NCBI GenBank assembly: GCA_964573775.1
Contig: CAZNKU010000002.1
Coordinates: 9,286-73,285 of the forward strand
From: an uncultured Clostridiaceae bacterium
GTDB lineage: Bacteria > Bacillota > Clostridia > Monoglobales > Firm-18
DNA: 64,000 bases
Direction of reading: 5' to 3'
The notes beneath the pieces are model-generated. The model was not told the origin of the DNA. It saw only the letters and a program-made list of their open reading frames with translations, and searched no databases. A program made the position numbers and the translations under genes. This document shows positions 7,852 to 27,008 of this stretch, in pieces; within the stretch, counting starts at the first letter, position 1, and every line of letters begins with the position of its first letter.

Positions 7852-7880
7852 TTGCATTTAATATTTGATTAGAGTATAAT
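7852..7880 (+). promoter_or_regulatory. Sigma-A-type promoter of the glycan operon
   Basis: TTGCAT (7852-7857), 17-nt spacer, TATAAT (7875-7880). Confidence 0.6.
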
Positions 7881-7970
7881 TATTATGTATAGATATAGGC
7901 ACTCGACAGCATTTTTCAAAAAAAGGGATTGGAATGCTGTTTTGGTCGTGCATTAAAAATTAAGTAGGAG

Positions 7971-9185
7971 ATGTTATTTGTGAAGAAAAGGAACATACCT
8001 TTTTCGCCTCCGGATATTTCGGATTTAGAAATAGAAATGGTTACCGAAGTTTTAAAAAGTGGTTGGATAACCACAGGACCCAAGACAAAACTTTTTGAAA
8101 AAGCCATTACAGAATATTGCGGTACTTCAAAAGCAGTATGTTTAAATTCTGCTACTGCGTGTATGGAAATGGCATTGAGAGTTATGGGAATTGGTGAAGG
8201 CGATGAGGTTATAACCAGTGCATATACATATACTGCAAGTGCAAGTGTTATCTGTCATGTGGGTGCAAAGGTTGTTATGGTTGATACTGCAAAGGACAGC
8301 TATCAGATGGATTACGGCAAGCTTGCTGATGCAATTACCGAAAAAACAAAAGCAATTATTCCTGTTGATATTGCAGGAGTAATGTGTGATTATGATAAAA
8401 TATTTGAAATTGTTGAAAACAAAAAACATTTGTTCAACCCAAATAACGATTACCAAAAAGCTTTGGGAAGAGTTATGGTTCTTGCAGATTCTGCGCACGG
8501 CTTTGGTGCAGAATATAAGGGCAGAAAAAGCGGTTCGGTTGCAGACTTTACAAGCTTTTCTTTCCACGCGGTTAAAAACCTTACAACAGGTGAAGGTGGG
8601 GGTCTTACATGGAATTCAATAGACGGAATAGATGATGATGAGCTTTACAAAAAGTTTATGTTGCTTTCCTTACATGGTCAATCTAAAGATGCCTTGGCTA
8701 AAACACAGCTTGGGGCATGGGAATATGATATTGTTGCACCGTACTTTAAGTGTAATATGACAGATATTATGGCTGCAATAGGTCTTGCTCAGCTTGAACG
8801 TTATGACGGTATGCTGAAAAAAAGAAAAAGACTTATAAAAATGTATGACAGCGGACTTAAAGACCTTGGTTTTGAAAGTCTTGAACACTATAATGATAAT
8901 GTTCAGTCCAGCGGACATTTGTATCTTACAAGAATTACAGGTAAAGACAGTGATTTTCGTAATGAGTTTATAATTAAAATGGCAGAACGTGGCATCGCAT
9001 GTAATGTGCACTACAAACCTCTTCCTATGCATACTGCATATAAAAATCTTGGATTTGACATTAATAATTATCCTAATGCATACAATCAGTTTGCAAACGA
9101 GGTTACTCTTCCTCTTAACACTCTTATGGCAGAGGAAGATGTGGAATACATAATAGAAAATATCAAAGAAATAATAGAGGGTTGA
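7971..9185 (+). CDS. DegT/DnrJ/EryC1-family sugar aminotransferase (PglE/WcfR-like); start may be the GTG at 7980
   Basis: IPFSPPDI start, SAH..AVKN PLP-lysine region, 404 aa; AGGAG abuts the ATG, so the GTG 9 nt downstream is plausible. Confidence 0.85.
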   Translation: MLFVKKRNIPFSPPDISDLEIEMVTEVLKSGWITTGPKTKLFEKAITEYCGTSKAVCLNSATACMEMALRVMGIGEGDEVITSAYTYTASASVICHVGAKVVMVDTAKDSYQMDYGKLADAITEKTKAIIPVDIAGVMCDYDKIFEIVENKKHLFNPNNDYQKALGRVMVLADSAHGFGAEYKGRKSGSVADFTSFSFHAVKNLTTGEGGGLTWNSIDGIDDDELYKKFMLLSLHGQSKDALAKTQLGAWEYDIVAPYFKCNMTDIMAAIGLAQLERYDGMLKKRKRLIKMYDSGLKDLGFESLEHYNDNVQSSGHLYLTRITGKDSDFRNEFIIKMAERGIACNVHYKPLPMHTAYKNLGFDINNYPNAYNQFANEVTLPLNTLMAEEDVEYIIENIKEIIEG

Positions 9186-9189
9186 TTTA

Positions 9190-9915
9190 ATGCTGCTTAA
9201 AAAGTTTGAAGACCTTGCACCCGAATTTCAAAATGAAAATGTAAAGAGATATTATGACATTTTAAAAAAGAAAACATTTGCACTTATTTTAAAAAGAACT
9301 TTTGATATAATTGCTTCGGCAATTATGCTTGTGATTTTATCGCCTGTCTTTTTGATTCTCGCAATAGCAATTAAGGTTGATTCAAAAGGCCCTGTTTTTT
9401 ACAGACAGGAGAGAATTACACAGTTTGGAAAAAAATTCAGGATTTTCAAATTCCGCACAATGGTTGCAAATGCAGACAAAATAGGCTCACTTGTTACGGT
9501 AAATAATGACAGCCGTATAACAAAGGTTGGCAGTTTTATAAGAAAGTGCAGACTTGACGAAATATGTCAGCTTATTGATATTTTCAGAGGAACAATGTCC
9601 TTTGTAGGAACACGACCTGAGGTGAAAAAATATGTGGACGCATATGCTGACGAAATGTATGCAACCTTGCTTATGCCTGCAGGGGTTACTTCACTTGCAA
9701 GTATAAAGTATAAGGATGAAGAAAAGCTTCTCTCAGGTGCAGATGATACAGACAGTACATACATAAACCGCATACTTCCTGATAAAATGAAATATAATCT
9801 GGAATATCTTGAAAAGTTCGGTTTCTTTTACGACATCAAACTTATGTTTATGACGGTTTTTGCGGTTTTGAAAAAAGAAGAGGAAGAAAAAACGGAGGAA
9901 AAAGTAAATGGATAA
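9190..9915 (+). CDS. Small bacterial sugar transferase (PglC/WcfS-like polyprenyl-phosphate priming phosphoglycosyltransferase)
   Basis: KRTFDI, one re-entrant helix, KGPVFYRQERIT..KFRTM, RPE motifs. Confidence 0.85.
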   Translation: MLLKKFEDLAPEFQNENVKRYYDILKKKTFALILKRTFDIIASAIMLVILSPVFLILAIAIKVDSKGPVFYRQERITQFGKKFRIFKFRTMVANADKIGSLVTVNNDSRITKVGSFIRKCRLDEICQLIDIFRGTMSFVGTRPEVKKYVDAYADEMYATLLMPAGVTSLASIKYKDEEKLLSGADDTDSTYINRILPDKMKYNLEYLEKFGFFYDIKLMFMTVFAVLKKEEEEKTEEKVNG

Positions 9916-10657: not shown

Positions 10658-10671
10658 TGGGGATATAAATC

Positions 10672-11607
10672 ATGAGCAAAGAAAAAGTATTGGTACTTAT
10701 GGGCGGTATTTCTACAGAAAGAGAAATATCACTAAAAAGCGGAACTGCTGTTGCAAAGGCTTTGCAGGAAGCAGGATATACAGTTGAAACACTTGATATA
10801 AATCAGAATAATGTATCTGAAATAGCAAAAATAAAACCTGATGTTTGTTACCTTGCTCTTCACGGCAAGGGCGGAGAGGACGGTTGCATCCAGGGTATGC
10901 TTGAATGGATGGGTATTCCATATACAGGTCCCGGAGTTTCGGCAAGTGCAATTTGTATGGATAAGGCACTTACTAAAAAGGTTTTGGTACAAAGTGGTAT
11001 ACCTACACCAAAGTCTTTGGAATATACAAAGGATGAATGTACAGATGTTGAAAAAATCAAAAATGAATTGATAGAAAAATTGGGTATTCCTGTTGTGTTA
11101 AAATCACCTTGTCAGGGTTCAAGCATCGGTGTTGTTATCGTACGTGACGAAGCATCTGTTGCAGACGCTATTGAAGAAGTTTTCAAATACGGCGACATTA
11201 TGCTTGCGGAACAGTTCGTTTGTGGTGTAGAAATTTCCGTTCCTGTTGTAGGCAATGAAAATCCTAAGGTTTTTCCGATTATTGAGATTGTACCTGTCAG
11301 CGAATTTTATGATTTTGAATCAAAGTATACACCTGGTATGAGTGAACATATCATACCTGCACGAATCAGCGAAAAAGCTATTGCAAACGTAAATAAGTAT
11401 GCAAAGGAAGCCTATGAAAAAACAGGTTGCAGAGGAGTTTCGAGAATAGACCTTATTATTGATGAAAATGATAACCCTTATGTTATAGAAATAAACACAA
11501 TCCCAGGTATGACCGAAACAAGCCTTGTGCCTGATTCCGCAAGATATATAGGAGTAGAATTCCCACAGCTTGTTGACAGAATTGTAAAACTTGCATTGAA
11601 AAAGTAG
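10672..11607 (+). CDS. ddl: D-alanine--D-alanine ligase (ATP-grasp)
   Basis: Full-length Ddl-like sequence: VLMGGISTEREISL, HGKGGEDG, EINTIPGMTETSL. Confidence 0.85.
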   Translation: MSKEKVLVLMGGISTEREISLKSGTAVAKALQEAGYTVETLDINQNNVSEIAKIKPDVCYLALHGKGGEDGCIQGMLEWMGIPYTGPGVSASAICMDKALTKKVLVQSGIPTPKSLEYTKDECTDVEKIKNELIEKLGIPVVLKSPCQGSSIGVVIVRDEASVADAIEEVFKYGDIMLAEQFVCGVEISVPVVGNENPKVFPIIEIVPVSEFYDFESKYTPGMSEHIIPARISEKAIANVNKYAKEAYEKTGCRGVSRIDLIIDENDNPYVIEINTIPGMTETSLVPDSARYIGVEFPQLVDRIVKLALKK

Positions 11608-11627
11608 TTTTCATAAAAAGGATTTTA

Positions 11628-12692: not shown

Positions 12693-12705
12693 AGGTGTTT
12701 TTGCT

Positions 12706-13221: not shown

Positions 13222-13223
13222 AA

Positions 13224-14324
13224 ATGAAAAGACTTTTATGTATTGTAAGTAATATGAATGCAGGCGGTGCAGAAACATTTTTAATGAAATTATTTCGTAA
13301 TATAGACCGAACACAATATATGATGGATTTTTGTGTTAATAGAAAGGACACCTGTTTTTACGAAGAAGAAATATATAAATTGGGTGGTAAAATTTTTGAA
13401 ATACCCTCAAAATCAGATAATTTAAAAGCTTTCAAAAAAGCACTTTTCAAATTGGTAAAAGAAGAAAAATATGAATATGTTTTAAGAATAACTTCTAATA
13501 CTGTGGGATTTATGGACTTGAAGATAGCAAAAAAAGCGGGGGCGAAGGTTTGCAGTGCACGTTCCAGCAATTCCAGTGACGGAGGTAGTTTGAAAAGTTT
13601 ACTTGTACATAAACTTGGGCGTTTGTTATATGGTAAATATGTTGATGTAAAGTTTGCGCCTTCTGACCTTGCCGCTAAATACACTTTCGGCAAAAAGGCT
13701 TATGAAAATGGAGTGGCCAAAATTTTGCACAATGCGATTGATTTAGATGTGTTTTCATATAAGGCAGATGGAAGAGACAGAGTTCGTGAAGAATTTAAAA
13801 TAAATGATAATACCATAGTCGTTGGTCATATGGGCCGTTTTATGACACAGAAAAATCATATGTTTTTATTGGATATTTTTGATGAGTATCATAAAAAGCA
13901 TAAGAATAGTGTTTTGATGCTTGTCGGCAAAGGGGAACTTGAACAGCAGATTAAGGGAAAAATTGCTGATAAAGGATTGACCGATTCGGTTATATTTACC
14001 GGTGTTCGTTCTGATGTACCTGATGTTTTTTCTGCTATGGATGTTTTTGTAATGCCTTCTTTATATGAGGGTATGCCAAATGTTGTTATTGAAGCACAGG
14101 CTACAGGTCTTCCGTGCATTATAGCTGATACTATTACCAAGGAAGCAGATATAACAGGATTAGTTAGTTATATGTCTTTACAAACCTCTGCAAAAGAATG
14201 GGCAGAGAAAGTTGGTAAATCCATAAATACGGAAAGAGTAGATACAAAAGAGAATTTTATAAAAAATGGCTATGATATTAGAGGCGTTGCTGACGAATTT
14301 ATCAAATTGGTATTTGGAGAGTGA
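13224..14324 (+). CDS. GT4-type glycosyltransferase
   Basis: N-terminal GGAE motif and EGMPNVVIEAQATGLPCI motif. Confidence 0.8.
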   Translation: MKRLLCIVSNMNAGGAETFLMKLFRNIDRTQYMMDFCVNRKDTCFYEEEIYKLGGKIFEIPSKSDNLKAFKKALFKLVKEEKYEYVLRITSNTVGFMDLKIAKKAGAKVCSARSSNSSDGGSLKSLLVHKLGRLLYGKYVDVKFAPSDLAAKYTFGKKAYENGVAKILHNAIDLDVFSYKADGRDRVREEFKINDNTIVVGHMGRFMTQKNHMFLLDIFDEYHKKHKNSVLMLVGKGELEQQIKGKIADKGLTDSVIFTGVRSDVPDVFSAMDVFVMPSLYEGMPNVVIEAQATGLPCIIADTITKEADITGLVSYMSLQTSAKEWAEKVGKSINTERVDTKENFIKNGYDIRGVADEFIKLVFGE

Positions 14325-14329
14325 AATAT

Positions 14330-15418
14330 ATGAAGCATATATTATTTGCAATCGGTTCACTTTATGGCGGTGGTGCAGAACGAGTTGTTTCGGTATGGTC
14401 AAGCAGACTTGCGAAAAAAGGGTATAAAGTTTCTGTCTTAGTGTATTCCAGAATGGAAAATGAATATCCGATTGACAACAAAGTAGAAGTGTATACTATT
14501 GCAAAATCTCAAAAAGAATGTAACGATATGTCTATTTTATCAAGGTTAAGATTGTTCAGGAAAAAGCTAAAAGAAATTAAACCTGATGTCGTTATAAGTT
14601 TTTTACCGATTATGCAAATATATGTTAGAATTGCGTGTATCGGACTACATATTCCCAGAATAGAAACAGTCAGAAATAATCCATGGGAAATTGAAAAAGG
14701 ACTAAATGCAATATACTCTAAACTATGGTTAAATTGTTTTAAAACCTGTAATGCTTTTATAGTACAAACAGGAGACCAGAAACTTTTTTTTGATAAGAAG
14801 GTGCAGGATAAAGCTGTAGTTATTCCCAATTCGATAAATGAATCATATTTGCAAAGCCATAAGACAGAATATAATGATAATTCTCATAAAATTATTGCAG
14901 CGGGCAGGCTTACTTTACAAAAGAACTATAAAATGATGATTGATGCTGTAAAAACGGCATCACAGAAATATGTGGATATAACCCTTGAAATATATGGTGT
15001 TGGAGAGCTTTACGATGAACTTAACGATTACATAAATGAACAGGGTTTATCCGATAAAATAACTCTTATGGGAAGAAGTGACAGTTTGTACAAGCTGTAT
15101 CCGGAGCGGGATTTGTATTTGATGAGTTCGGACTACGAAGGTATGCCAAATGCTTTGGCTGAGGCTATGGCAGTAGGACTTCCTTGTATTTCGACGGATT
15201 GCAAAACCGGACCACGGGATTTGATTGAAAATGGAGAAAATGGGTATTTGGTTGAAGTGGGAAATGCAGGTGTTATGGCAGAAAAAATTGTGGAATTTTT
15301 CGAACTTTCTGGCGATGGCCAAAAGATAATTGGTGAGAATGCAAGGAAAAAAATAATTGATTTTTGCAGTGAAAAAAATAGTATGTCAAAGCTAATACAA
15401 TTAATTGAGGCGATTTAA
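14330..15418 (+). CDS. GT4-type glycosyltransferase (ORF opens at GTG 14321; the ATG at 14330 has the better RBS spacing)
   Basis: GGGAERV and EGMPNALAEAMAVGLPCI motifs. Confidence 0.8.
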   Translation: MKHILFAIGSLYGGGAERVVSVWSSRLAKKGYKVSVLVYSRMENEYPIDNKVEVYTIAKSQKECNDMSILSRLRLFRKKLKEIKPDVVISFLPIMQIYVRIACIGLHIPRIETVRNNPWEIEKGLNAIYSKLWLNCFKTCNAFIVQTGDQKLFFDKKVQDKAVVIPNSINESYLQSHKTEYNDNSHKIIAAGRLTLQKNYKMMIDAVKTASQKYVDITLEIYGVGELYDELNDYINEQGLSDKITLMGRSDSLYKLYPERDLYLMSSDYEGMPNALAEAMAVGLPCISTDCKTGPRDLIENGENGYLVEVGNAGVMAEKIVEFFELSGDGQKIIGENARKKIIDFCSEKNSMSKLIQLIEAI

Positions 15419-15442
15419 ATATATTGTGAGAGGAGAAGGTAA

Positions 15443-16708
15443 GTGAATTATTGTATAAAAGAAAAAAATGGGAAAAGCATACTAGAGTCTAAAAATGGCA
15501 TAAATAATTTTCTTGCCTTTGCAACACTTTTGCTTTTAGTCTTATCCCAAAATAAGGATTGGGGAAGCACTAGCTTTTTGTGGTGGGGTGCAGTAGGGCT
15601 ATTTATGGTTACGGTTGTTCTTTCAAATAATTTAAAGTTTTATTTGGATGTTGGATATACAACCTGGGTTGTATCGTTTTTACTTATATGCTTTTTTTCA
15701 TTAATGTGGGCAGTTGACACTACTCCTGTTATAAATTCATTAAAAAATCTATTAGTCCATTTTACTATATTAATATTATTACGTTCTTCAATAAGAACGC
15801 GTGAAGATATTGAAACTGTATTTAAAGTTATAGTTTTGTCGGTTGTTATTAATTCTGCTTATCTTCTTTTTATTAGTTCAAGTGTTTTAGAACAGGCAAA
15901 AATGGTGGAGAGTGGGGCAGCCAGACTGGGCGAAGAAGGTGCCTGGAATGCCAACGGAATAGGGTTTATGACTTCAAATGCTGTGTTGATTTCCTTGTTT
16001 TTTTTCAAAAAAACCAAGAAAAATTATGTGAAGTTAATTAATATTTGTATAATTGTATTGACTTGTGTGGTTACTTTGTTGACCGGATCGCGTACTGCGA
16101 TTCTAAAAGTTGCTGCAGGTTTAGCATTGTTTACATATTTTAGTTATAATGGTAAACGGTTTAAAGCAGTGTTAATTATTTTGATTCTGTTGATTGTACT
16201 ATACTGTGTTATGATGTATGTGCCCTTATTTTACTCTATTATCGGTTGGAGAATGGAAGGGTTGTTTGCAATGTTTACAGGTGTAGGTGAAATTGAATCC
16301 AGTGCTGATATACGCGATAAATTTATAGGAGATGCAATAGAAAGATGGAAGGAAAGGCCAATTTTAGGTTATGGGCTTGATTGTTACAGAAGGGTTAATA
16401 CAATAAAACAAAATTATTATTCCCATAATAATTTTGTTGAATTGTTGGCTGATTTAGGTGTGGTAGGATTTATTGCATTCTATATTGCACACATAAAGAA
16501 TTTGTTTATATTATTCAAATTCAAAAAGGATGATAGTATGAAGTGGTTTTTGATTACAGCTATTATTGTGGTGCTGCTTTCTGACTATGGTACAATTTCA
16601 TACCATAACCTTTTGACTATGTCATTGATTATGTTGTCTTTCGCATATATTACAATTTGCAAAAGGGAGGAACAAAAATATGATATCGAGAATCAAAGCG
16701 ATGTATAG
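15443..16708 (+). CDS. wzy: O-antigen polymerase/ligase-family membrane protein (Wzy-like)
   Basis: About 10-12 TM segments with a large loop containing GSRTA and HNNFVELLADLG, as in Wzy_C. Confidence 0.6.
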   Translation: MNYCIKEKNGKSILESKNGINNFLAFATLLLLVLSQNKDWGSTSFLWWGAVGLFMVTVVLSNNLKFYLDVGYTTWVVSFLLICFFSLMWAVDTTPVINSLKNLLVHFTILILLRSSIRTREDIETVFKVIVLSVVINSAYLLFISSSVLEQAKMVESGAARLGEEGAWNANGIGFMTSNAVLISLFFFKKTKKNYVKLINICIIVLTCVVTLLTGSRTAILKVAAGLALFTYFSYNGKRFKAVLIILILLIVLYCVMMYVPLFYSIIGWRMEGLFAMFTGVGEIESSADIRDKFIGDAIERWKERPILGYGLDCYRRVNTIKQNYYSHNNFVELLADLGVVGFIAFYIAHIKNLFILFKFKKDDSMKWFLITAIIVVLLSDYGTISYHNLLTMSLIMLSFAYITICKREEQKYDIENQSDV

Positions 16709-17225
16709 AGTATTTAAAGGGCCGTTTAAATGTGCCGTTGAAAATGGGCTTAAGGTCGGGAAGAATGTAAGTTTTGGCGCCAACATTAATTGGGGTTCAG
16801 AACCATATCTGATTACAATTAAAGACAATGTAAGGTTATCAAGCAATATTGTGTTTTTAACTCATGATGGAGGTTCACATGCCTTCAGGGATAAGGATAT
16901 CTATAAGGGTGTAAACAAGTTTGGCAAAATTGTAGTAGAAGAGCATTCATTTATAGGTACTAATGCGATAATTATGCCAAATGTTCGTATAGGTAAACGA
17001 AGTGTTGTAGGTGCAGGCGCAGTTGTTACCAAAAGCGTACCTGACGATTGTGTTGTTGCAGGTATTCCTGCAAGAATTATATGTTCTACTTCCGAGTATG
17101 CAGATAAAATGAAAAGTATGCAAGCAGATTTGGGATGGGATGCCAAAAACTATATGGCAAATAAAAAGGACTATTTGATTAATAATATTCCAGAACCGCC
17201 TGTTGGAAATATTAATAACAAATAA
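16680..17225 (+). CDS. Hexapeptide-repeat acyltransferase
   Basis: IGTNAIIMPNVRIGKRSVVGAGAVV repeats; GGGAGG RBS; 29-nt overlap with wzy. Confidence 0.7.
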   Translation: MISRIKAMYRVFKGPFKCAVENGLKVGKNVSFGANINWGSEPYLITIKDNVRLSSNIVFLTHDGGSHAFRDKDIYKGVNKFGKIVVEEHSFIGTNAIIMPNVRIGKRSVVGAGAVVTKSVPDDCVVAGIPARIICSTSEYADKMKSMQADLGWDAKNYMANKKDYLINNIPEPPVGNINNK

Positions 17226-17235
17226 CGGAGGAAAA

Positions 17236-18126
17236 ATGAATAGTTTTATAAAAGATTTTATATTTAAATTAAATCAAAGAGGTTATTTAAACTTTTTGTC
17301 TGACAAAGCATTTTTGAAATTGATGTTTCGGGTTAGAATGGATAAAAAATTAAACCTAAAAAATCCACAGACGTATAACGAAAAATTACAATGGCTAAAG
17401 CTTTATGACAGAAATATTGAATATTCAAAGCTTATTGATAAGTATGAAGTAAAAAAATACGTGGCTGATTTAATTGGTGATGAATATGTAATTAAAACTT
17501 TGGGTGTATGGGATAATTTTGATGATATAGATTTTGATAAATTGCCCAAGCAGTTTGTTTTAAAGTGTACTCATGACAGTGGTGGTCTTGTAATTTGTGA
17601 TGATAAAGAAAAACTTGATATAAATGAAGCTAAGGCAAAAATAGAAAGCTGTTTGAAAAAAGATTATTACAAACACGGACGAGAATGGGTTTATAAAAAT
17701 GTAAGCCATCGTATAATTGCAGAGGAATATATGAAGGATAGTAAGACCAATGAGTTGCGTGACTATAAATTCTTTGCTTTCGATGGTGAGGTAAAGGCGG
17801 TATTTATTGCTACTGACAGGCAGCTTAAGGATGAGGAAACCAAATTCGATTTTTATGATGATAAATTTAATCATTTGCCGTTTACCAATGGACATCCTAA
17901 TGCAGATGTGCCTCCTGAAAAACCGGAAAATTTTGAAAAGATGAAGGAACTTGCATCAATCCTTTCAAAAGGCTTGCCCCATGCAAGGGTAGATTTCTAT
18001 GAGGTTGATGGTAAAATTTATTTTGGTGAAATTACCTTTTTCCATTGGAGCGGTATGGTGCCTTTTGAACCTGAAGAGTGGGATTATACTTTTGGTTCAT
18101 GGATAAAATTACCTGAGAAACGATAA
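17236..18126 (+). CDS. TupA-like ATP-grasp amidoligase
   Basis: NPQTYNEKLQWLKLYD, FVLKCTHDSGG, DYKFFAFDGE, RVDFYEVDGKIYFGEITF match the ATPgrasp_TupA family as I recall it. Confidence 0.7.
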   Translation: MNSFIKDFIFKLNQRGYLNFLSDKAFLKLMFRVRMDKKLNLKNPQTYNEKLQWLKLYDRNIEYSKLIDKYEVKKYVADLIGDEYVIKTLGVWDNFDDIDFDKLPKQFVLKCTHDSGGLVICDDKEKLDINEAKAKIESCLKKDYYKHGREWVYKNVSHRIIAEEYMKDSKTNELRDYKFFAFDGEVKAVFIATDRQLKDEETKFDFYDDKFNHLPFTNGHPNADVPPEKPENFEKMKELASILSKGLPHARVDFYEVDGKIYFGEITFFHWSGMVPFEPEEWDYTFGSWIKLPEKR

Positions 18127-18138
18127 CAAGGAGTTGTA

Positions 18139-19245
18139 TTGTATATGAGAGCATTGTTGGGCAAAATATGGCGAAATTTTAATGAAAAGAGAATTTTAAG
18201 AAAAGCGCTTAGAAGCAGAGTAAAAAAAATGAAGGACAGGCGTCGCCAGGAAATTGCAAACAAATATATTTTAACTAAAGAACAAGAAAAGCAAATTGAT
18301 AAGTTATATCTCAGTACATATGGAAAAAAAATCCCCTATGATTGGCATAAGTTTTATTCGGCATATACAAAAAACTTTGATGTAAATTATATTCCTGAAT
18401 TGATTTTTTTACCAATAATAGAGAAAAAATTCAACAATCAGAAATATGTGTCGGCATTTTCCGATAAAAACTTGTTACCATTTTATGTTAGCGGATTAGA
18501 AAATGTAAAAACCCCGAAAATATTTTTATCTTCCGCAAATGGTTTTTATAGAGATGAAAATTATAATTTGATTACCAAGGATCAGGCAATCAATTTGCTT
18601 TCAAATCTTCGTTGTTTTGGAAAACCGACTGTTGATTCCAATTCGGGCAATATGTGTGCTGTATATAACTTCGAAAATGGTATAGATATAATTTCCAAAA
18701 AGACCGTAGAACAAGTTATTGATAATATGGGAAAGAATTTTTGTTTCCAGGAACTTATTTCTAATTGCGAAAGTGTCAGAAGGTTGCATGAAAATAGCTT
18801 GAATACATTTAGAATTACTACTTATTTGTGGAATGATAAGGTTTGGCATGCGCCGATGGTTATGAGAATTGGGCAAGGAAATTCGCTTCTTGATAATGTC
18901 CATCAGGGTGGGATGTTTATTGGCGTTTCTGATAGCGGAGAATTAGCCGAATGTGCCTTCACAGAATTCCTGGACAAATTTTATGTTCATCCTGATTCTA
19001 AAATAGAATTTAAAGGCTATTGTGTTCCAGAAGCAAAAAAAGCTCTTGAGGCTGTAAAAAAGATTCATCAAAGAATACCACAGATGGGATTAGTGGCATG
19101 GGATGTAATTGTAAATGAAAAAGAAGAAGTAGTCGTTATTGAGATGAATGTTTTTGGACAGGGACCCGAAGCATCACAAAAGGCGAATGGTCAAGGACTG
19201 TTTGGCGAAAATACGGCAGAAATTTTGACTTGGATAGGAAAATAA
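18139..19245 (+). CDS. Sugar-transfer-associated ATP-grasp protein (ATPgrasp_ST-like)
   Basis: FRITTY, NVHQGGMFIGV, VAWDVIV..VVIEMN pattern; start ambiguous (TTG 18139 or ATG 18145). Confidence 0.55.
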   Translation: MYMRALLGKIWRNFNEKRILRKALRSRVKKMKDRRRQEIANKYILTKEQEKQIDKLYLSTYGKKIPYDWHKFYSAYTKNFDVNYIPELIFLPIIEKKFNNQKYVSAFSDKNLLPFYVSGLENVKTPKIFLSSANGFYRDENYNLITKDQAINLLSNLRCFGKPTVDSNSGNMCAVYNFENGIDIISKKTVEQVIDNMGKNFCFQELISNCESVRRLHENSLNTFRITTYLWNDKVWHAPMVMRIGQGNSLLDNVHQGGMFIGVSDSGELAECAFTEFLDKFYVHPDSKIEFKGYCVPEAKKALEAVKKIHQRIPQMGLVAWDVIVNEKEEVVVIEMNVFGQGPEASQKANGQGLFGENTAEILTWIGK

Positions 19246-19344
19246 TTTTATTTTGCCGAGGTGTGTTTTTGAGTGCTTTATATCCTATATGATTAGGTAG
19301 ATTATATATTGCCAGGTAAATATTATTGTGTGAGGGGTGTTTTT

Positions 19345-20250
19345 ATGGATTTGGTAACATGTGCAATTACAACACATAAACGCAAACCGGAAATTGTTGA
19401 AAGAGCATTGAAGAGTATATTGAATCAAACACATAAAAATATTGAGGTTTTTATTGTTGATGACAGTCCTGCTGATTGGGAATACCGCAGTGAAGTGAAA
19501 AATATGGTTGAATCATATTCGGAGCATAATGTTATGTATATCGCTCACGAAGAATGCATGGGAGCATGTGTAGCAAGAAATACAGCCCTTGAAAATGCCA
19601 AAGGTGTATACATAGGTTACCTTGATGACGATGATGAATGGTGTCCGGACAAGATAGAAAAACAATTGCAAGGATTCACTAATAAAAATATAGCTCTTGT
19701 ATATTGTGATCATAAAATTATATACGATGGAACAGATAGGGTGAAAAATATAGTATCTGAAAAGCACTCCGGCTATGTGTTTGATAAATTGTTTTTCAGT
19801 AATTTCATAGGTTCTACATCTTTTCCCTTGATAAAAACAAAATGTTTAAAAGAAATTGGCGGATTTGATCCACTTATGCCTGCAGCACAGGATTATGATG
19901 TGTGGATTAGAATTGCAGAGAAATATGAAGTTAATTATGTGTCAGCGGAACTTGTTGTGTATCATGCTCACGAGGGAGAACAAATTACTAAAAATCCAGC
20001 TAAAAAAAACAATGGATTAAAGAGGATTATGGAAAAGCATAAAGATTACTTAAATGCTAACAAAGAGGCTTATTGGGTGCGTTATATGAAGCTGATTCTT
20101 TCACACATGAATGCAAAACAATATTCTGAAGCATTAAGATGTTGGAGAAAGGCTGCTTTTAAGTGTCCGCTAAAAATTACAGAAAATTTACATTATTTGT
20201 ATTTAATATTTGCAAAGATGTTTGTTAGTATAAGAGATAGAAAAAAATAA
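19345..20250 (+). CDS. Family 2 glycosyltransferase
   Basis: GAGGGG RBS before the ATG at 19345; NQTHKNIEVFIVDDS and LDDDDEW motifs. Confidence 0.75.
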   Translation: MDLVTCAITTHKRKPEIVERALKSILNQTHKNIEVFIVDDSPADWEYRSEVKNMVESYSEHNVMYIAHEECMGACVARNTALENAKGVYIGYLDDDDEWCPDKIEKQLQGFTNKNIALVYCDHKIIYDGTDRVKNIVSEKHSGYVFDKLFFSNFIGSTSFPLIKTKCLKEIGGFDPLMPAAQDYDVWIRIAEKYEVNYVSAELVVYHAHEGEQITKNPAKKNNGLKRIMEKHKDYLNANKEAYWVRYMKLILSHMNAKQYSEALRCWRKAAFKCPLKITENLHYLYLIFAKMFVSIRDRKK

Positions 20251-20279
20251 ATCTTTTGGGATTGATGGGAGAAAGAAAT

Positions 20280-21443
20280 ATGAAAAAGTATATTCTGGTT
20301 ACCGGCGGAGAACTCCGAAATAAAGGAGCTCAGGCAATGACATTTATTACAGTTGACCAAATTGCAAAGAAATTTCCTGAATACCGTGTTGTTTTATTGG
20401 ACGGCTACGATTATAGTGAGGGACTAACGAAAAATTTAAAGTTTCAATTTACAAAATTAGCAAGAATACGATATATGCTTAATTGCTTAAAACCTTGGAA
20501 AAATCCATTTCCAAAAAAATATGAAGTTTCTGAAATTTTTAATAATTTGGCAGGGGTTGTGGATATAAGCGGATACAGACTTGGGTCAAATTGGCCTGAT
20601 CATACTGTTAAGTCATACATACGAACCATTTTTTTTGCCAAACATCTTGGCGTACCGGTATATTTGATGCCGCAATCTTTCGGACCGTTTGAATTTAAGG
20701 GAAAAAACAAGTTTATACTTAATACTTTAATAAAGAGATATCTTAAATATCCAAAGGTTATAATGGCAAGAGAAACCGAAGGGTATAATTGGCTTTGTGA
20801 AAAGTATAAACTTAAAAATGTAGTTAAAACCCCTGACCTTGTACTGCAGAACACAGGTATTGATTTAGCCAATATTTTTCATAAAGTTCCCGAAACATTT
20901 AAACTTTCCGTACGTGAAAACAGTGTTGCCATAATTCCAAACAGTAAAAATAATAAATTTGGAAATAAAGAAGAAATAATGATTTTGTATAAAAATATTA
21001 TAGATATGCTTTTGGAAAAAGGGAAGTATGTATATCTTTTGTATCATGCAAAAGAAGATTTGTCCATTTGCAGAGAAATGAAAGAATTGTATACGGAAAA
21101 TGAAAATGTAATTCTCGTAGAGCAGGAGTTGGGATGTATAGAATACGGTGATTGTGTTGGTAAGTTTGATTATATTATAGGCTCCAGATATCATTCCATA
21201 GTTCATGCATACAAGGAATATACACCTGCAATAGTTTTTGGATGGGCAACCAAGTACAGAGAACTTGCAGAAATGTTCGGACAGGAAGGTTATTGCTTTG
21301 ATGTACGAAATTCTATGAATACAGAAAATATATTGAATAAAATTGAAATTATGTGTAATCTTTTTGATGAAGAATCTCAAAAAATCAAAAAAGTTATGAA
21401 TGAGGTTCAAAGCAGTAATGTATATGATTATTTAGAATTTTAG
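20280..21443 (+). CDS. Polysaccharide pyruvyl transferase (WcaK/CsaB family)
   Basis: MKKYILVTGGELRNKGAQAM start and SRYHSIVHA region typical of PS_pyruv_trans. Confidence 0.65.
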   Translation: MKKYILVTGGELRNKGAQAMTFITVDQIAKKFPEYRVVLLDGYDYSEGLTKNLKFQFTKLARIRYMLNCLKPWKNPFPKKYEVSEIFNNLAGVVDISGYRLGSNWPDHTVKSYIRTIFFAKHLGVPVYLMPQSFGPFEFKGKNKFILNTLIKRYLKYPKVIMARETEGYNWLCEKYKLKNVVKTPDLVLQNTGIDLANIFHKVPETFKLSVRENSVAIIPNSKNNKFGNKEEIMILYKNIIDMLLEKGKYVYLLYHAKEDLSICREMKELYTENENVILVEQELGCIEYGDCVGKFDYIIGSRYHSIVHAYKEYTPAIVFGWATKYRELAEMFGQEGYCFDVRNSMNTENILNKIEIMCNLFDEESQKIKKVMNEVQSSNVYDYLEF

Positions 21444-21452
21444 AGGTGTAAA

Positions 21453-22970
21453 ATGAGCGAAAGTAGAACTAAAAATGCTTCAAGGAATATAATTTTCGGT
21501 TTTGCTAACAGGTTTGTGGTACTTTGTCTTCCCTTTGTTACGAGAACAATCATCTTGTATTTGCTTGGTTCGGAATATTTAGGCATAGGCACATTATTTT
21601 CATCTGTACTTAGTTTTCTTAATCTTGCAGAATTGGGTTTAGGCAGTGCAATAGTTTATTCTATGTATAAACCGATTGCAGAAAATGATGTTGTCAAAAT
21701 TGGAGCACTATTGAATTTTTACAAAAAGTTGTACAGGCTTATCGGTATAGTTATTTTAGCAGTTGGGTCCATGTTGGTGCCATTTATACCATATTTAATG
21801 AAGGGCGGAGCACCGCAAAATCTTAATCCATACTTGCTTTATTATTTATACCTTATAAATTCCGTTATAAGTTATTTCTTTGCAGGATATAAACAGAGTC
21901 TTTTGACATCCCATCAAAGAAGTGACATTATTAGTAATATTTCGACGCTTATAAGTATATTTATACAGATAGGACAGATTGTTCTTTTGTGTGTAACAAG
22001 GAGTTTGTATACATACGCAATCGTTCCGATTTGCGGAACAATTCTTACAAATATATGTATAGCTATTATTACAAAAAGAAAGTATCCTGACATAAAATGC
22101 GAAGGGGATATTTCATCAGATATCAAGAATGAAATTAAGACTAAAATAGGTGGTTTGTTTGGAACAAAGCTTAACAGTATTGTTGTTCACTCTGCAGACA
22201 CTTTGATTATTTCAGCATTTCTGGGTCTTAGTATGACAGCAAAATACGGAAACTATTACTATATTATGAATGCAATATGCGGTTTTATTATGGTATTTTA
22301 TTCATCAATGACGGCAGGTATAGGTAACAAACTTGTGGTTGATTCCATAGAGGAAAACTATAAATTCTTTAAAAATATGAATTTTATCAATGCATGGCTT
22401 GTTGGTTGGTGCAGTATTTGTCTGCTGTGCCTGTATGAACCGTTTATGGAGCTTTGGGTCGGAGACAGTATGAAACTGGGCATTGTATTTGTAATACTTA
22501 TGGTTGTATATTTTTACATATATATGATTCAAAGAAATATGCTAACATTTAAAGATGCAGCAGGACTTTGGAATAAGGATTGGATGAGGCCTTATATTTC
22601 CATGTCTTTGAATGTTGTTTCTAATTTGGTTCTGGTAAGGTTTATTGGCATTTATGGAATAGTTGTTTCAACGATTCTGGCATTTTTAATATCTGTTCCG
22701 TGGGTAACCAGTGTGTTGTTTAAGAATCTGTTTAAGATGTCACCCGCAAAAAATCTTTTTGCAATCTTTAAATATTCTATATTTACTATTGCTATTGCAT
22801 GTGTTACATATTTTATTTGCGGATTGTGTATGGAAGGGTTTATAGGTTTGATACAGCGTGCAATAATCTGCTGTGTTGTGCCTAATATATTTTTTATATT
22901 GTTTTTCTTTAAGACTGCAGAGTTTGCTTATTTAAAGGATTTTATTCTTAAGAAGGTACTTAAACATTAA
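21453..22970 (+). CDS. wzx: MOP-superfamily polysaccharide flippase (Wzx)
   Basis: 505 aa, about 14 TM segments, N-terminal RNIIFGF..R pattern. Confidence 0.7.
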   Translation: MSESRTKNASRNIIFGFANRFVVLCLPFVTRTIILYLLGSEYLGIGTLFSSVLSFLNLAELGLGSAIVYSMYKPIAENDVVKIGALLNFYKKLYRLIGIVILAVGSMLVPFIPYLMKGGAPQNLNPYLLYYLYLINSVISYFFAGYKQSLLTSHQRSDIISNISTLISIFIQIGQIVLLCVTRSLYTYAIVPICGTILTNICIAIITKRKYPDIKCEGDISSDIKNEIKTKIGGLFGTKLNSIVVHSADTLIISAFLGLSMTAKYGNYYYIMNAICGFIMVFYSSMTAGIGNKLVVDSIEENYKFFKNMNFINAWLVGWCSICLLCLYEPFMELWVGDSMKLGIVFVILMVVYFYIYMIQRNMLTFKDAAGLWNKDWMRPYISMSLNVVSNLVLVRFIGIYGIVVSTILAFLISVPWVTSVLFKNLFKMSPAKNLFAIFKYSIFTIAIACVTYFICGLCMEGFIGLIQRAIICCVVPNIFFILFFFKTAEFAYLKDFILKKVLKH

Positions 22971-22994
22971 AACAATATGATGGGAGTAGGTAAT

Positions 22995-23954
22995 ATGAGG
23001 ATAAAAGAAAAAATCAAGACAGTGGCAAACATGATTGTCAGGAAAAGTTCTTATAAGGATTTATTTAATAATTATCAAAAAAGATATGTAAAAAACACTT
23101 TTGGTAATGGTGTATATGTTAATTACAGTCAATATGAAGCTGTTATTACCAAAATGTATCATACAGTTGAAAAGGGTTTGTCCTATGTTGATTACAGAGC
23201 AGGTTTTGGGGAAAAGGCGATTTTTGAATTGGTTGATACTATGGAAAAGTATAGCCGTAATTATGATGTTAATGCTTTCTTTTATCAGACTGCACTTTGT
23301 ACATTATATGAATATATTGAAAAAAACAGAAAATACGGCTACGAAAATAAAGAATTAGAATCAAAAATAAAAAATCTTTCAGGTATGCCAAATGAGGTTG
23401 GAGGAATTATTACTTTTAATCCTGAAAATATACCTGCTGATTTTGAAGAATTTGTTATGAGCCGTCACAGCATAAGGGAATTTTCCAATGTGCCTGTGGA
23501 TGTTGAAAAACTTGTCTCGGCAATTAAACTTTCTCAGCATACTCCCTCAGCATGTAACCGTCAGGGGTGGAAAACAAGAATTGTTGCAGATAAAGACGTC
23601 TTAAGAACTATTCTTAATAACCAGAACGGAAACAGGGGATTTGGAGATAAAATTGATAAATTATTGGTTATAACATGTGATTTGTGTTATTTTAATAAAA
23701 GCAGAGAAGTGCATCAGGCTTTTATAGATGGAGGTATGTATGCAATGAATATATTGCATAGTTTGCACTATAATAAAATTGCCACAATTCCACTAAGTGC
23801 TTCGTTGAATGTAGTTCAGGATGAAAATGTCAGAAAAGCGATAAATATGAAGAATTCGGAAATTTTGATTATGTTTATTGGCGTGGGCAATTATCCAGAA
23901 ACTTGTCAGACTACAAGATCCGAAAGAAGAAAAGCTGATATTGAAATAATATAA
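22995..23954 (+). CDS. Nitroreductase-fold protein with an N-terminal extension of about 150 aa
   Basis: SRHSIREF, PSACNRQ, NGNRGF motifs in the C-terminal 170 aa. Confidence 0.55.
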   Translation: MRIKEKIKTVANMIVRKSSYKDLFNNYQKRYVKNTFGNGVYVNYSQYEAVITKMYHTVEKGLSYVDYRAGFGEKAIFELVDTMEKYSRNYDVNAFFYQTALCTLYEYIEKNRKYGYENKELESKIKNLSGMPNEVGGIITFNPENIPADFEEFVMSRHSIREFSNVPVDVEKLVSAIKLSQHTPSACNRQGWKTRIVADKDVLRTILNNQNGNRGFGDKIDKLLVITCDLCYFNKSREVHQAFIDGGMYAMNILHSLHYNKIATIPLSASLNVVQDENVRKAINMKNSEILIMFIGVGNYPETCQTTRSERRKADIEII

Positions 23955-23969
23955 CATTGGAGAGATTTT

Positions 23970-25145
23970 ATGAAATGTGTTGAGAGATTTCAAAATACGT
24001 ATAATAAAGAACCTGACGGTATTGCCTTTTGTCCGTATAGGATTTGTCCAATTGGTGCACATTCCGACCATCAGTACGGCAAAATAACCGGACTTGCCAT
24101 AGACAAGGGTATTCATATTGCTTATGGACCAAAGAAAAACGGAGTTATAGAGCTTGTTTCAATGCAGTTTAACAAGCGGGCACAGTTTCATGTTGCAAGC
24201 ATTCCGAAAACTCCTCAAAATGACTGGGCAGATTATTTGCGAGGGGCAGCTTTTGCGTTGGCAAAAAATCATGACCTTGAAGTTGGGCTTTGCGGAGTTA
24301 TAGAAGGTAGCTTGCCAATTGGCGGTCTTTCATCTTCCGCAGCGGTTATTATTGCATTTTTGTCAGCACTTTGCACAGTAAACAAAATAAAAATATCTAA
24401 GCAGGAACTTATTATGACGGCACTTTCTGCGGAAAATAATTACGTTGGTGTATCATGCGGAAAGCTTGACCAGTCATGTGAAGTGTACAGCAAGAAAAAG
24501 CATTTGCTTTACCTTGATACAAAGGATGACAGCTACGAGCTTATTCCTCAGAACCCTGATATGAAACCTTATGAAATTGCAGTTTTCTTCAGCGGTGTAG
24601 AGCGTTCTCTTGCAGGCTCTGCTTTTAATATGAGGGTTGACGAATGCCGAAGCGCCGCATATGCACTTAAGGCGTATGCCGGTTTGGAATATGGGAAATT
24701 CGATGAAACGAACCTTCGCGAAGTGCCATATGAGGTGTATTTGAAATATAAGGAAAGGTTGCCCGAGAACTGGGCAAAACGAGCTGAACATTGGTATACA
24801 GAATATATGCGTGTTGAAGTCGGAGTAGAAGCATGGCGAAAGGGAGATATAGAAACATATGGCAAACTTTCCTTTGAAAGCGGAAGAAGTTCCATTGAAA
24901 ATTGGGAAACAGGCTCGCCTGAACTTAAATCTATATATGAAATAATGCTTGAAACCGATGGTATATACGGAGGGCGTTTCAGTGGTGCAGGCTTTAAAGG
25001 TTGCTGTATGGCGCTCATAGACCCTGCATTCAAAAAAGAAATTTCAAAAAATGTTACCGAAAAATATCTTGCAATGTTTCCGCAGTATAAAGATACATTT
25101 TCAGTACATTTTTGTAAATCTGCAGATGGTTGCAAAATAAAATAA
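23970..25145 (+). CDS. GHMP sugar-1-kinase, galactokinase family (substrate unassigned)
   Basis: PYRICPIGAHSDHQ and PIGGLSSSAA GHMP motifs; GGRFSGAGFKGC. Confidence 0.7.
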   Translation: MKCVERFQNTYNKEPDGIAFCPYRICPIGAHSDHQYGKITGLAIDKGIHIAYGPKKNGVIELVSMQFNKRAQFHVASIPKTPQNDWADYLRGAAFALAKNHDLEVGLCGVIEGSLPIGGLSSSAAVIIAFLSALCTVNKIKISKQELIMTALSAENNYVGVSCGKLDQSCEVYSKKKHLLYLDTKDDSYELIPQNPDMKPYEIAVFFSGVERSLAGSAFNMRVDECRSAAYALKAYAGLEYGKFDETNLREVPYEVYLKYKERLPENWAKRAEHWYTEYMRVEVGVEAWRKGDIETYGKLSFESGRSSIENWETGSPELKSIYEIMLETDGIYGGRFSGAGFKGCCMALIDPAFKKEISKNVTEKYLAMFPQYKDTFSVHFCKSADGCKIK

Positions 25146-25157
25146 GGGGATTATAAT

Positions 25158-25895
25158 ATGATATGCTTAATATTAGCGGCAGGTTATGCCACAAGACTTT
25201 ATCCACTAACTGAAAATTTCCCAAAGCCTCTTTTAAAGGTTGGGGAAAAGACAATTCTTGACCACCTTACAGATGACATATATTCCGGTGGCAAGATAGA
25301 AGAATTTATTGTTATTTCCAACCACAAGTTTGCACAGCATTTTGAGGATTGGGCAAAAACAAAGGAATATAAAATCACAGTAGTTGATGACGGCACAAGC
25401 ACTAACGAAACACGCCTTGGAGCAGTCAAGGATATTAAGTTTGCCATTGATAAATTAAATTTAAGTGATGATATGCTGATTATAGCAGGGGATAATGTCC
25501 TCGATTTTTCTCTTAATAAATTTGTTGATTATGCAATATCTAAAAATTCAAGTGCTGTAATGAGATATTTTGAGGGTGAAAAGAAAAGATTGCAAAAGTG
25601 CGGCGTTTTAGAACTTGATGATGCTGATTTAATTAAAGGTATGGAGGAAAAACCTCAAGAACCAAAATCTAATTGGTGTTGTCCGCCCTTCTATTTCTAT
25701 AAAAAAGATGATATTTCAAGAATTGGAGAGGCAATATCTGACGGATGCGGTGTAGATGCACCGGGAAGCTTGGTTTCCTGGATGTGTAAAAAATCATCAG
25801 TTTATGCTTTTGAAATGCCCGGTTCAAGATATGACATCGGCAACCTTGAAAGTTATGAAAAAGTACAAGAGGAGTATAAAGGAATAACATGCTGA
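25158..25895 (+). CDS. Sugar-1-phosphate nucleotidyltransferase
   Basis: LILAAGYATRLYPLTENFPKPLL signature. Confidence 0.75.
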   Translation: MICLILAAGYATRLYPLTENFPKPLLKVGEKTILDHLTDDIYSGGKIEEFIVISNHKFAQHFEDWAKTKEYKITVVDDGTSTNETRLGAVKDIKFAIDKLNLSDDMLIIAGDNVLDFSLNKFVDYAISKNSSAVMRYFEGEKKRLQKCGVLELDDADLIKGMEEKPQEPKSNWCCPPFYFYKKDDISRIGEAISDGCGVDAPGSLVSWMCKKSSVYAFEMPGSRYDIGNLESYEKVQEEYKGITC

Positions 25896-26962
25896 TACCT
25901 AATGTTGATCTCAATAACAAAACAATAATGGTTACAGGGGCTGCAGGGTTTGTAGGTGCAAATCTTGTTATGGAGCTTTTAAATTCATATGACAATGTTA
26001 ATATTATCGGTGTAGATAATCTTAATGATTATTACGATGTTTCCATAAAGGAATACCGTCTTTCAGAGATAGAAAAGCTTGTTGTCCAAAAGCCTGAAAG
26101 TAACTGGACATTAGTAAGAGGAAGTATCGCAGACAGACAGCTTATGGATAGTATTTTTGAAGAATACAGACCAAATGTAGTTGTAAACCTTGCTGCACAG
26201 GCGGGTGTAAGGTATTCTATTACAAATCCTGATGTATACATAGAATCAAACATTATAGGATTTTATAATATTTTAGAAGCCTGCAGAAAGTATCCTGTTG
26301 AGCATTTAGTGTATGCTTCAAGCTCATCAGTTTACGGTTCAAACAAAAAAATACCATATTCAACAGACGATAAGGTAGATAACCCTGTTTCACTTTATGC
26401 GGCTACCAAAAAGTCTAATGAACTTTTGGCACATTCGTATTCCAAACTTTACAATATTCCGTCAACAGGTTTAAGATTTTTTACTGTATATGGACCTGCG
26501 GGCAGACCGGACATGGCTTATTTTGGATTTACAAACAAGCTTTTAAAGGGTGAAACCATACAAATATTTAACTTTGGTAACTGCAAAAGAGATTTCACCT
26601 TTGTGGACGATATAGTTGAGGGTGTAAGAAGAGTTATGGAATGTGCACCGGAAAAGGAGGATGGTGAAGATGGTTTACCGTTGCCTCCGTACAGAGTTTA
26701 CAACATCGGTAATAACAGTCCGGAAAACTTGTTGGACTTTGTAGATATACTTCAACAAGAACTTATCAATGCAGGTGTGTTGCCTGAAGATTATGACTTT
26801 GAAGCACACAAAGAACTTGTGCCTATGCAACCCGGAGATGTTCCTGTTACCTACGCAGATACATCAGCACTTGAGCGTGATTTTGGTTTTAAGCCATCCA
26901 CAAGTTTGCGTGATGGATTGCGTAAATTTGCAGAGTGGTATAAAACGTTTTATAATTGCTAA
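25889..26962 (+). CDS. NAD-dependent epimerase, UDP-glucuronate 4-epimerase-like (CapI/Cap1J type)
   Basis: VTGAAGFVGANL, YASSSSVYG, YAATKK (YxxxK) and overall resemblance to the CapI family. Confidence 0.7.
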   Translation: MLIPNVDLNNKTIMVTGAAGFVGANLVMELLNSYDNVNIIGVDNLNDYYDVSIKEYRLSEIEKLVVQKPESNWTLVRGSIADRQLMDSIFEEYRPNVVVNLAAQAGVRYSITNPDVYIESNIIGFYNILEACRKYPVEHLVYASSSSVYGSNKKIPYSTDDKVDNPVSLYAATKKSNELLAHSYSKLYNIPSTGLRFFTVYGPAGRPDMAYFGFTNKLLKGETIQIFNFGNCKRDFTFVDDIVEGVRRVMECAPEKEDGEDGLPLPPYRVYNIGNNSPENLLDFVDILQQELINAGVLPEDYDFEAHKELVPMQPGDVPVTYADTSALERDFGFKPSTSLRDGLRKFAEWYKTFYNC

Positions 26963-26970: not shown

Positions 26971-27008
26971 CGCAAGGAAAATCCGATATTTTCCTTGCGT
27001 TTTCTCTT
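26971..27008. terminator. Bidirectional terminator closing the glycan operon and the convergent gene
   Basis: CGCAAGGAAAAT / ATTTTCCTTGCG perfect 12-bp stem followed by a T-rich tract. Confidence 0.8.

Follow-up and report, generated by a model that had tools for sequence, protein, structure and literature searches.

PF14397 is a near-obligate partner family of TupA-like amidoligases and lies close to genes of uronic-acid supply. The case studied here comes from a 64,000-nucleotide stretch of contig CAZNKU010000002.1 from an uncultured Clostridiaceae bacterium of the gut (the window). In this window a TupA-like ATP-grasp gene (gene A, PF14305) is directly followed by a 'sugar-transfer associated' ATP-grasp gene (gene B, PF14397 or ATPgrasp_ST, hereafter ST). 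Both are held in a co-oriented Wzx/Wzy-type polysaccharide operon of about 19 kb on the + strand (7971-26962), as delimited by the map of open reading frames (ORFs) and the family assignments. The two families were defined in 2009. Both genes are ordinary members of them and their arrangement is typical for PF14397, so that the window pair is a typical instance and not a surprise. Tentatively, and with somewhat less than even confidence, we read the pair as a conserved module by which two ligases decorate a Wzx/Wzy-type surface polysaccharide: gene A would amidate a uronic acid, and gene B would perform a dependent second ligation. Added here to the first-pass annotation of this DNA are the asymmetric partnership of TupA and ST, its link to uronic acids and a concrete, testable hypothesis for PF14397.

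The two ligases and their active sites

The first-pass annotation had described a tandem of non-canonical ATP-grasp genes, one TupA-like and one ATPgrasp_ST-like, located after Wzy and an acyltransferase, and this description holds in all its parts. Both ORFs are present on the + strand with the quoted motifs, NPQTYNEKLQWLKLYD in gene A and NVHQGGMFIG in gene B. The match of gene A to PF14305 (ATPgrasp_TupA) covers the whole profile (1-241 of 241) and scores 230.4 bits (cut-off 25, E 3e-68), and gene B matches PF14397 at profile positions 7-272 of 278 (141.9 bits, cut-off 31.4, E 3e-41). NCBIfam contains no model for either gene. The ATG of gene A is preceded by GGAGG at 17227-17231; in gene B an alternative in-frame TTG start at 18139 is nearer to an AAGGAG at 18128-18133. 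PF14397 comprises about 9,600 clusters at 50% identity matching at E<=1e-3, and the TupA family is much larger in the protein collection.

AlphaFold2 models were built on alignments of 37 homologues for gene A and 32 for gene B, with pLDDT of 93.1 and 91.0, respectively. Foldseek searches of the PDB with these models returned 220 and 270 matches at E<=1e-3. Nearly all of the top 50 per model are ATP-grasp ligases or carboxylases, together with two ITPK kinases in the case of gene B, and the best matches reach E values of 1e-6 to 1e-7 with TM-scores of 0.40-0.45. The gene A model matches Ddl (D-Ala-D-Ala ligase), LysX and PsnB, and the gene B model matches VanA, Ddl, LysX/ArgX, PsnB and BacD; biotin carboxylases are also found among the matches of the two models. 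In both models the first 80-115 residues are helical and replace the alpha/beta pre-ATP-grasp domain, which makes the label 'non-canonical' apt. Profile searches of PDB sequences recovered no relative of either family. The two families are also not demonstrably sisters by sequence, since an hhalign comparison of ST with TupA gave a weak local match only (probability 2.5%).

The family alignment of gene A has invariant residues K110, E163, D176-Y177-K178, R251, D253, E265 and T267. In a profile alignment K110 corresponds to K144 of Ddl, and the nucleotide and Mg residues would be K110, R251-x-D253 and E265-x-T267. In gene B the invariant residues are K160, Q202/E203, N220-T221-R223, D250-N251-H253-G255, D320 and E333-N335, of which D320, E333 and N335 align to Ddl D257, E270 and N272; the ATP-binding lysine would be K160 and the Mg site D320 and E333-x-N335. 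Gene B holds 34/34 invariant columns of the 32-sequence alignment, although this is so by construction, the window protein being among the rows. An ATP-grasp nucleotide site, on which the first-pass annotation had made its proposal depend, is thus present in both predicted structures according to the AlphaFold2 models, the Foldseek matches and the motif equivalences with Ddl. Structural modeling shows both products to be ATP-grasp enzymes with intact nucleotide and Mg sites, and the modeled fold and catalytic motifs point to cytoplasmic carboxylate-amine ligases of ATP-grasp type.

The closest functional guide for gene A is the C-terminal domain of Cj1438 (Cj1438C) from the Campylobacter jejuni HS:2 capsule pathway. 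This domain has a TupA-like fold and catalyzes the ATP-dependent amidation of the C6 carboxylate of a terminal glucuronate (PMC11800379, PMC12409886). The amine is ethanolamine phosphate or serinol phosphate, and the amidation is required before the next glycosyl transfer (PMC11800379, PMC12409886). In a BLASTP comparison with the Cj1438 sequence taken from the supplement of the Cj1438 paper, the alignment of gene A with Cj1438C spans residues 21-292 at 33% identity (E 6e-43), with shared motifs NEKL, FVLK(C/T)xHDxGG, REWxYK, AEE, YKF, TDR, RVDxY and GExTFxH. The first-pass statement that substrates of both families are mostly uncharacterised therefore needs correction for the TupA-like family, in which Cj1438C is a proven glucuronate C6 amidoligase, and appears to stand for PF14397, of which the literature searched makes no mention. 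Gene A evolves under purifying selection (dN/dS, the ratio of nonsynonymous to synonymous substitution rates, 0.07). Many close TupA homologues are 440-490 aa long and contain two TupA-matching stretches (for example, P0002, P0003 and P0025).

Gene B shows no similarity to Cj1438C. The next-best Pfam family of its homologues is the YheC/D-like PF14398, matched by 25 of 32 members (best E 5e-7), and gene B itself scores 15.6 bits against it, below the gathering threshold of 26.8. The N-terminus of gene B is strongly basic, with 19 lysines and arginines in the first 60 residues. Tandem ST-ST fusions of 756-790 aa also exist among PF14397 proteins (P0307, P0353). A search for a TupA-ST fusion, as Rosetta-stone evidence, turned up ST-ST tandems among the long proteins of the ST family and doubled TupA stretches among those of the TupA family.

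Pairing of TupA-like and PF14397 genes across lineages

A scan with the gene B profile, using one genome per species, yielded 80 ST loci, which were collapsed to 63 lineages. These loci span Clostridia, Collinsella, Bacilli, Anaeroplasma, Streptococcus constellatus, Alkalicoccus, Elusimicrobia, Thermoguttaceae and Bacteroidales. In 32 loci a same-strand TupA-like gene lies less than 300 bp from ST, and a further 30 loci have one within 5 kb. Counted by lineage, 46 of the 63 have a TupA-like gene on the strand of ST. By gene order, TupA is found at position -1 relative to ST in 20 lineages, at -2 in 13 and at +1 in 5, and the genes intervening between the two encode Wzy, Wzx or pyruvyl transferase. 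Of the 45 lineages that have TupA as well as ST, 27 have the two side by side, versus 8.7 +/- 2.6 expected for random gene order; an adjacency of 27 was reached in 0 of 200,000 random-order simulations. When only lineages with at least 15 kb of sequence are considered, TupA is present in 38 of 44. Four of the six long loci without TupA are not polysaccharide loci, and the other two carry other ATP-grasp ligases, namely, a Lal-like (L-amino-acid ligase-like) ligase, Ddl and a second PF14397 gene in L025, and an ATP-grasp_4 ligase with an AMP-binding enzyme in L076. In the reverse direction, 46 long metagenome loci were collected around close homologues of TupA; only 13 contain ST, many of them representing one abundant lineage.

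Gene B thus appears to depend on a partner ligase and gene A does not, because ST nearly always occurs with TupA or another ATP-grasp ligase and TupA mostly occurs without ST. This asymmetric co-occurrence favours a dependent, sequential role of gene B. Serial ligations are also indicated by the ST-ST tandem fusions and by ST-TupA-TupA-TupA arrays. The multiplicity of ligases lends itself to another explanation as well, in which each ligase, with its own amine, amidates a different carboxylate, for instance on two uronic acids, or on one uronic acid and on a lactyl group or pyruvate ketal. Such parallel amidation, which we consider possible but unlikely, is suggested by the several TupA paralogues often found in one locus (up to 3-4), as if there were one enzyme per site, and by two TupA-ST-GT4 repeats in S. 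constellatus (GT4, family 4 glycosyltransferase). It does not account for the fact that in polysaccharide loci ST is almost never the sole ATP-grasp ligase, while TupA commonly is.

In S. constellatus (L071, 5499-10633) the two successive TupA-ST-GT4 units are accompanied by a third TupA, and both ST copies appear split into shorter ORFs, as pseudogenes or through assembly errors. Unannotated genes following TupA in L166 and L170 were tested as cryptic ST homologues and are not. PF14397 homologues are also found outside polysaccharide loci in L015, L046, L066 and L067, where the neighbours encode a sulfate permease; peptidase M50 and argininosuccinate synthase; SurE and LpxB; and GNAT and LPG_synthase_C-like proteins. 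These homologues may have other substrates.

Uronic-acid supply and the likely acceptor

UDP-glucose 6-dehydrogenase (Ugd) is encoded in 26 of the 63 ST lineages, and the family of the short-chain dehydrogenase/reductase (SDR) that ends the window operon is found in 39. The co-occurrence of Ugd and a 4-epimerase-like gene therefore indicates uronic acids as the target. The nearest PDB relative of the window SDR is 5u4q (4e-110), followed by 6zl6, WbgU, MoeE5 and WbpP, among which 6zl6 and MoeE5 are UDP-glucuronate 4-epimerases. Homologues of this SDR scoring 586-630 bits adjoin Ugd in L063 and L071 (S. constellatus). The next lineage, L003, in which gene B is 60% identical, is syntenic with the window, has Ugd in the slot of the window's Ddl gene and shows the order TupA-ST-TupA. 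The galactokinase-like GHMP kinase and the sugar-1-phosphate nucleotidyltransferase occur together in 11 ST lineages, sometimes beside Ugd.

A sister strain (L001) provides the closest comparison. Its sequence is 94-95% identical to that of the window at the nucleotide level over 7642-12533 and 13848-20249, gene A being identical and gene B 94% identical. In the swapped segment between these blocks (12533-13848), the hexapeptide acyltransferase is replaced by a homologue of glucuronyl C5-epimerase. With a C5-epimerase in the same cluster, the backbone common to the two strains probably contains a uronic acid. Their shared block runs to 20249, its last gene being that of the family 2 glycosyltransferase (GT2), and the downstream genes are wholly different, the sister strain encoding GNAT, a PylC-like ATP-grasp protein, a second DegT and Acyl_transf_3. 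The block at 20256..23954, which in the window encodes the pyruvyl transferase, Wzx and the nitroreductase-like protein, is thus missing from a strain that keeps TupA-ST.

These comparisons bear on parallel amidation of a uronic acid and a pyruvate-derived carboxylate. In the window the pyruvyl transferase gene comes two genes after the pair, in Collinsella it separates TupA from ST, and the enzyme is encoded in 13 of the 63 ST lineages, as such a division of labour would have it. Against it, 28 of the 38 long loci with TupA lack pyruvyl transferase, and the sister strain keeps the pair with no pyruvyl transferase in the 20.9 kb of its cluster seen. The pyruvate ketal as a general second carboxylate was rejected on these grounds. 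In the comparison with other loci (L003, L023, L061 and L167 among them), the pyruvyl transferase (20256-21443) recurs with the nitroreductase-like protein (22977-23954), usually with Wzx between them; in eight other ST lineages and in L167 it recurs with a Fer4/FrhB_FdhB_C protein. Speculatively, the pyruvyl transferase and reductase pair could make carboxyethyl (lactyl) ethers, not ketals.

The hexapeptide acyltransferase, GT2 and pyruvyl transferase neighbours were considered as general partners of the module and rejected on cross-lineage counts. The acyltransferase family, for instance, occurs near ST in only 6 of 63 lineages, which places the hexapeptide acyltransferase outside the general module.

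A proposed order of reactions and its rivals

Homology and genomic context make it most likely that gene A acts on a hexuronic acid of the growing lipid-linked repeat unit, whose C6 carboxylate it would convert to an acyl phosphate. By analogy with Cj1438C, it would then join the activated carboxylate to the amine of an amino acid or amino alcohol. The asymmetry of co-occurrence, and only this, suggests that gene B would most likely ligate a further residue, in an ATP-dependent manner, onto the carboxylate of the first, producing a dipeptide or short peptide side chain. The basic N-terminal helices of gene B might, speculatively, hold the enzyme at the membrane or on the acidic lipid-linked substrate. 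The order, with TupA acting first and gene B second, is our inference; hints in favour of the sequential model are the usual TupA-then-ST gene order, the ST-ST fusions, the TupA arrays and the basic N-terminus of gene B.

Several observations weigh against this reading. The literature searched contained no characterised member of PF14397. Residues ~200-225 of gene A (ETKFDF..NHLPFTNGHPNA) diverge from Cj1438C. The segment corresponds to the substrate-closing omega-loop region of Ddl, and because this putative substrate-facing part differs, the amine used by gene A, and even its acceptor, may differ from those of Cj1438C. Three further observations each bear on a rival explanation.

First, co-occurrence gives no order of action and fits donor synthesis equally well. 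In that scheme gene B would act on soluble substrates, like Ddl or L-amino-acid ligase, and make a dipeptide or modified amine for gene A to attach; ST would depend on TupA in this scheme too. Among the top structural matches of gene B are the dipeptide-forming ligases VanA, Ddl and BacD, and in loci without TupA ST adjoins Ddl and Lal-like ligases. We nevertheless regard donor synthesis as improbable. In Ddl and Lal the first amino acid is bound by the alpha/beta N-terminal domain, which gene B lacks and in place of which it has a basic helical region, its nearest Pfam relative is YheC/D-like and not Ddl, and the cluster already contains a canonical Ddl.

Second, no Ugd gene is present within the window, and a uronic acid in the window's own polymer is for this reason inferred from related loci. 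The gap would fit a different chemistry, in which one or both enzymes acylate a sugar amine with the carboxylate of an amino acid or act as kinases or ester-forming enzymes. DegT, which opens the operon together with a small phosphoglycosyl transferase, implies a 4-amino sugar, and ATP-grasp enzymes include kinases, as illustrated by the ITPK matches of gene B. A different chemistry is nonetheless very unlikely, in our estimate, because DegT accompanies ST in only 6 of 63 lineages versus 26 for Ugd, and because the homology of gene A to a proven uronate amidoligase is clear and extends along the entire protein.

Third, residues 338-349 of gene B (19156-19191) read GPEASQKANGQG, in place of the family consensus S(V/A)WLxQMAHGxG, so that W342 and the AHG downstream of it, a nearly invariant motif, are lost. 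The replacement is also present in the sister strain, and a compensated frameshift was tested as the source of this odd C-terminus and rejected. One could imagine gene B of this lineage to be a functionally degenerate relic, with gene A the only active enzyme, all the more so given the fragmented ST copies of S. constellatus. We give this very little credence. Gene B retains all ATP and Mg residues, its ORF is intact in at least three assemblies and under purifying selection (dN/dS 0.13-0.17), and its AlphaFold2 model is confident.

Where uronic acids carry amide-linked amino acids, capsules and O-antigens differ in charge and antigenicity, and most of the enzymes responsible for such additions have yet to be assigned. 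Glycan analysis of the proposed dependent second ligation could draw on cultured carriers of the pair, including Collinsella aerofaciens, Anaeroplasma bactoclasticum ATCC 27112, Alkalicoccus luteus KCTC 33100, Butyrivibrio sp. AE2015, Ruminococcus sp. YRD2003 and Streptococcus constellatus.

The operon and its third ATP-grasp gene

The operon (Table 1) begins with genes for a DegT-type aminotransferase, a small polyprenyl-phosphate sugar-phosphate transferase, GT2, Ddl and GT4. They are followed by a hexapeptide acyltransferase, two GT4, Wzy, a second hexapeptide acyltransferase, gene A and gene B, which is thus flanked by Wzy, acyltransferase and TupA on one side and by GT2, pyruvyl transferase and Wzx on the other. 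The remaining genes encode GT2, pyruvyl transferase, Wzx, the nitroreductase-like protein, the galactokinase-like GHMP kinase, the sugar-1-phosphate nucleotidyltransferase and an SDR epimerase/dehydratase.

Table 1. Selected features of the polysaccharide operon in the window
Feature	Position	Strand	Family matches and remarks
DegT-type aminotransferase and small polyprenyl-phosphate sugar-phosphate transferase (operon start)	7971..9915	+	PF01041, PF02397
Canonical D-Ala-D-Ala ligase (Ddl), third ATP-grasp gene	10672..11607	+	NF002378, 378 bits (cut-off 243)
Wzy-type repeat-unit polymerase	15443..16708	+	PF04932, E 8e-18; TIGR04370
Hexapeptide-repeat acyltransferase, directly upstream of gene A	16680..17225	+	PF00132/PF14602; NeuD/WbbJ/LacA-like partial matches
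Gene A, TupA-like ATP-grasp, 296 aa	17236..18126	+	PF14305, 230 bits
Gene B, 'sugar-transfer associated' ATP-grasp, 366 aa	18145..19245	+	PF14397, 142 bits
GT2 glycosyltransferase, WcaA/TuaG-like	19345..20250	+	PF00535; NF047683 (TuaG-like), 95 bits
Pyruvyl transferase, Wzx flippase and nitroreductase-like protein	20256..23954	+	PF04230, NF041503, PF00881
Galactokinase-like GHMP kinase and sugar-1-phosphate nucleotidyltransferase (sugar activation route)	23970..25895	+	Family matches
SDR, hexuronate/HexNAc 4-epimerase-like, probable UDP-GlcA 4-epimerase	25889..26962	+	Nearest PDB relative 5u4q

The GC content of the middle of the operon is 0.32-0.34, below that of the flanks, and a strong hairpin at 26971-26999 closes the operon. 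Scans for promoters and terminators inside it gave nothing informative and no convincing terminator on the + strand. The first 29 nt of the acyltransferase ORF (16680-16708) are shared with the end of wzy, which suggests translational coupling. The small phosphoglycosyl transferase at the start of the operon is 241 aa long, and its combination with DegT resembles the WcfR/WcfS pair with which synthesis of zwitterionic polysaccharide A begins in Bacteroides fragilis. By this resemblance the polymer may carry a 4-amino-4,6-dideoxy sugar. The same cluster is present in an independent Logan assembly, and two other public assemblies give identical gene calls; related records are metagenome-assembled genomes of uncultured Clostridia and Eubacteriales.

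The Ddl gene had been overlooked in the first-pass annotation. Its product scores 377.8 bits against NF002378 and, when aligned to E. coli DdlB (1iov/2dln), keeps all the DdlB catalytic and specificity residues, E15, H63, S150, K215, Y216, R255, D257, E270, N272, S281 and L282. Its genomic contexts were compared in L025, L166, L167 and L170. The nearest homologues with known context (73-83% identity) are in a housekeeping-type locus, and 29 bp downstream of one such ddl relative a polysaccharide cluster begins. Homologues at 62% identity are found within polysaccharide clusters, in the order GT4-Ddl-Wzy-TupA. L166 contains six ATP-grasp genes, Ddl and five further ones, along with an Asn-synthase-like gene. 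The Ddl of the window cluster may be a housekeeping gene that hitch-hikes at a hot spot for polysaccharide clusters, or it may have been recruited to supply a donor.

A bolder proposal, which we regard as a long shot, is that the locus makes a glycopeptide-like surface polymer, in which a uronic acid of each repeat unit would carry a short peptide stem built stepwise by the TupA-like enzyme and then by the PF14397 enzyme, the stem possibly ending in D-Ala-D-Ala from the cluster Ddl. If true, this would be an ATP-grasp counterpart of stem-peptide synthesis by Mur ligases and would generalise teichuronopeptide to gut anaerobes. Related loci (L025, L166), whose complement of ATP-grasp ligases reaches four to six, would then make longer stems.

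Comparison with known systems

Gene A and Cj1438C belong to the same Pfam family and act in surface-polysaccharide pathways, in both cases with a GT2 alongside. The two differ in setting, since Cj1438C is fused to its GT2 and serves an ABC-transporter-type capsule of a proteobacterium, whereas gene A is free-standing in a Wzx/Wzy locus of a Clostridia bacterium. The amine of gene A may also differ from the ethanolamine phosphate or serinol phosphate that Cj1438C uses. Moreover, gene A is paired with a PF14397 enzyme and Campylobacter uses none. Family membership alone leaves a glycan substrate unproven, because CfmP of Klebsiella pneumoniae, TupA-like by predicted structure, modifies pilin in fimbriae independently of surface polysaccharides (PMC13419641).

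The namesake of PF14305 is TupA of Bacillus (Halalkalibacterium) halodurans C-125, which is involved in teichuronopeptide synthesis; no demonstrated reaction of this protein was found in the literature searched. Teichuronopeptide consists of polyglucuronate and poly-gamma-L-glutamate (PMC8153356) and is thus a glycan-peptide conjugate of the kind proposed here. In the alkaliphilic bacillacean Alkalicoccus (L065), TupA-ST adjoins a TuaD-like Ugd.

For gene B, the YheC/D proteins of PF14398 differ in not being polysaccharide-locus enzymes. The best structural matches of the window proteins are ligases of the Ddl, VanA, LysX-ArgX and RimK types, with which the catalytic lysine and the D...E-x-N Mg site align. 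The window proteins differ from these ligases in the absence of the alpha/beta N-terminal domain, at 10-20% sequence identity and TM-scores of 0.40-0.45. The nearest mechanistic analogues of the role proposed for gene B are LysX and RimK, which build onto a carboxylate of a macromolecular carrier.

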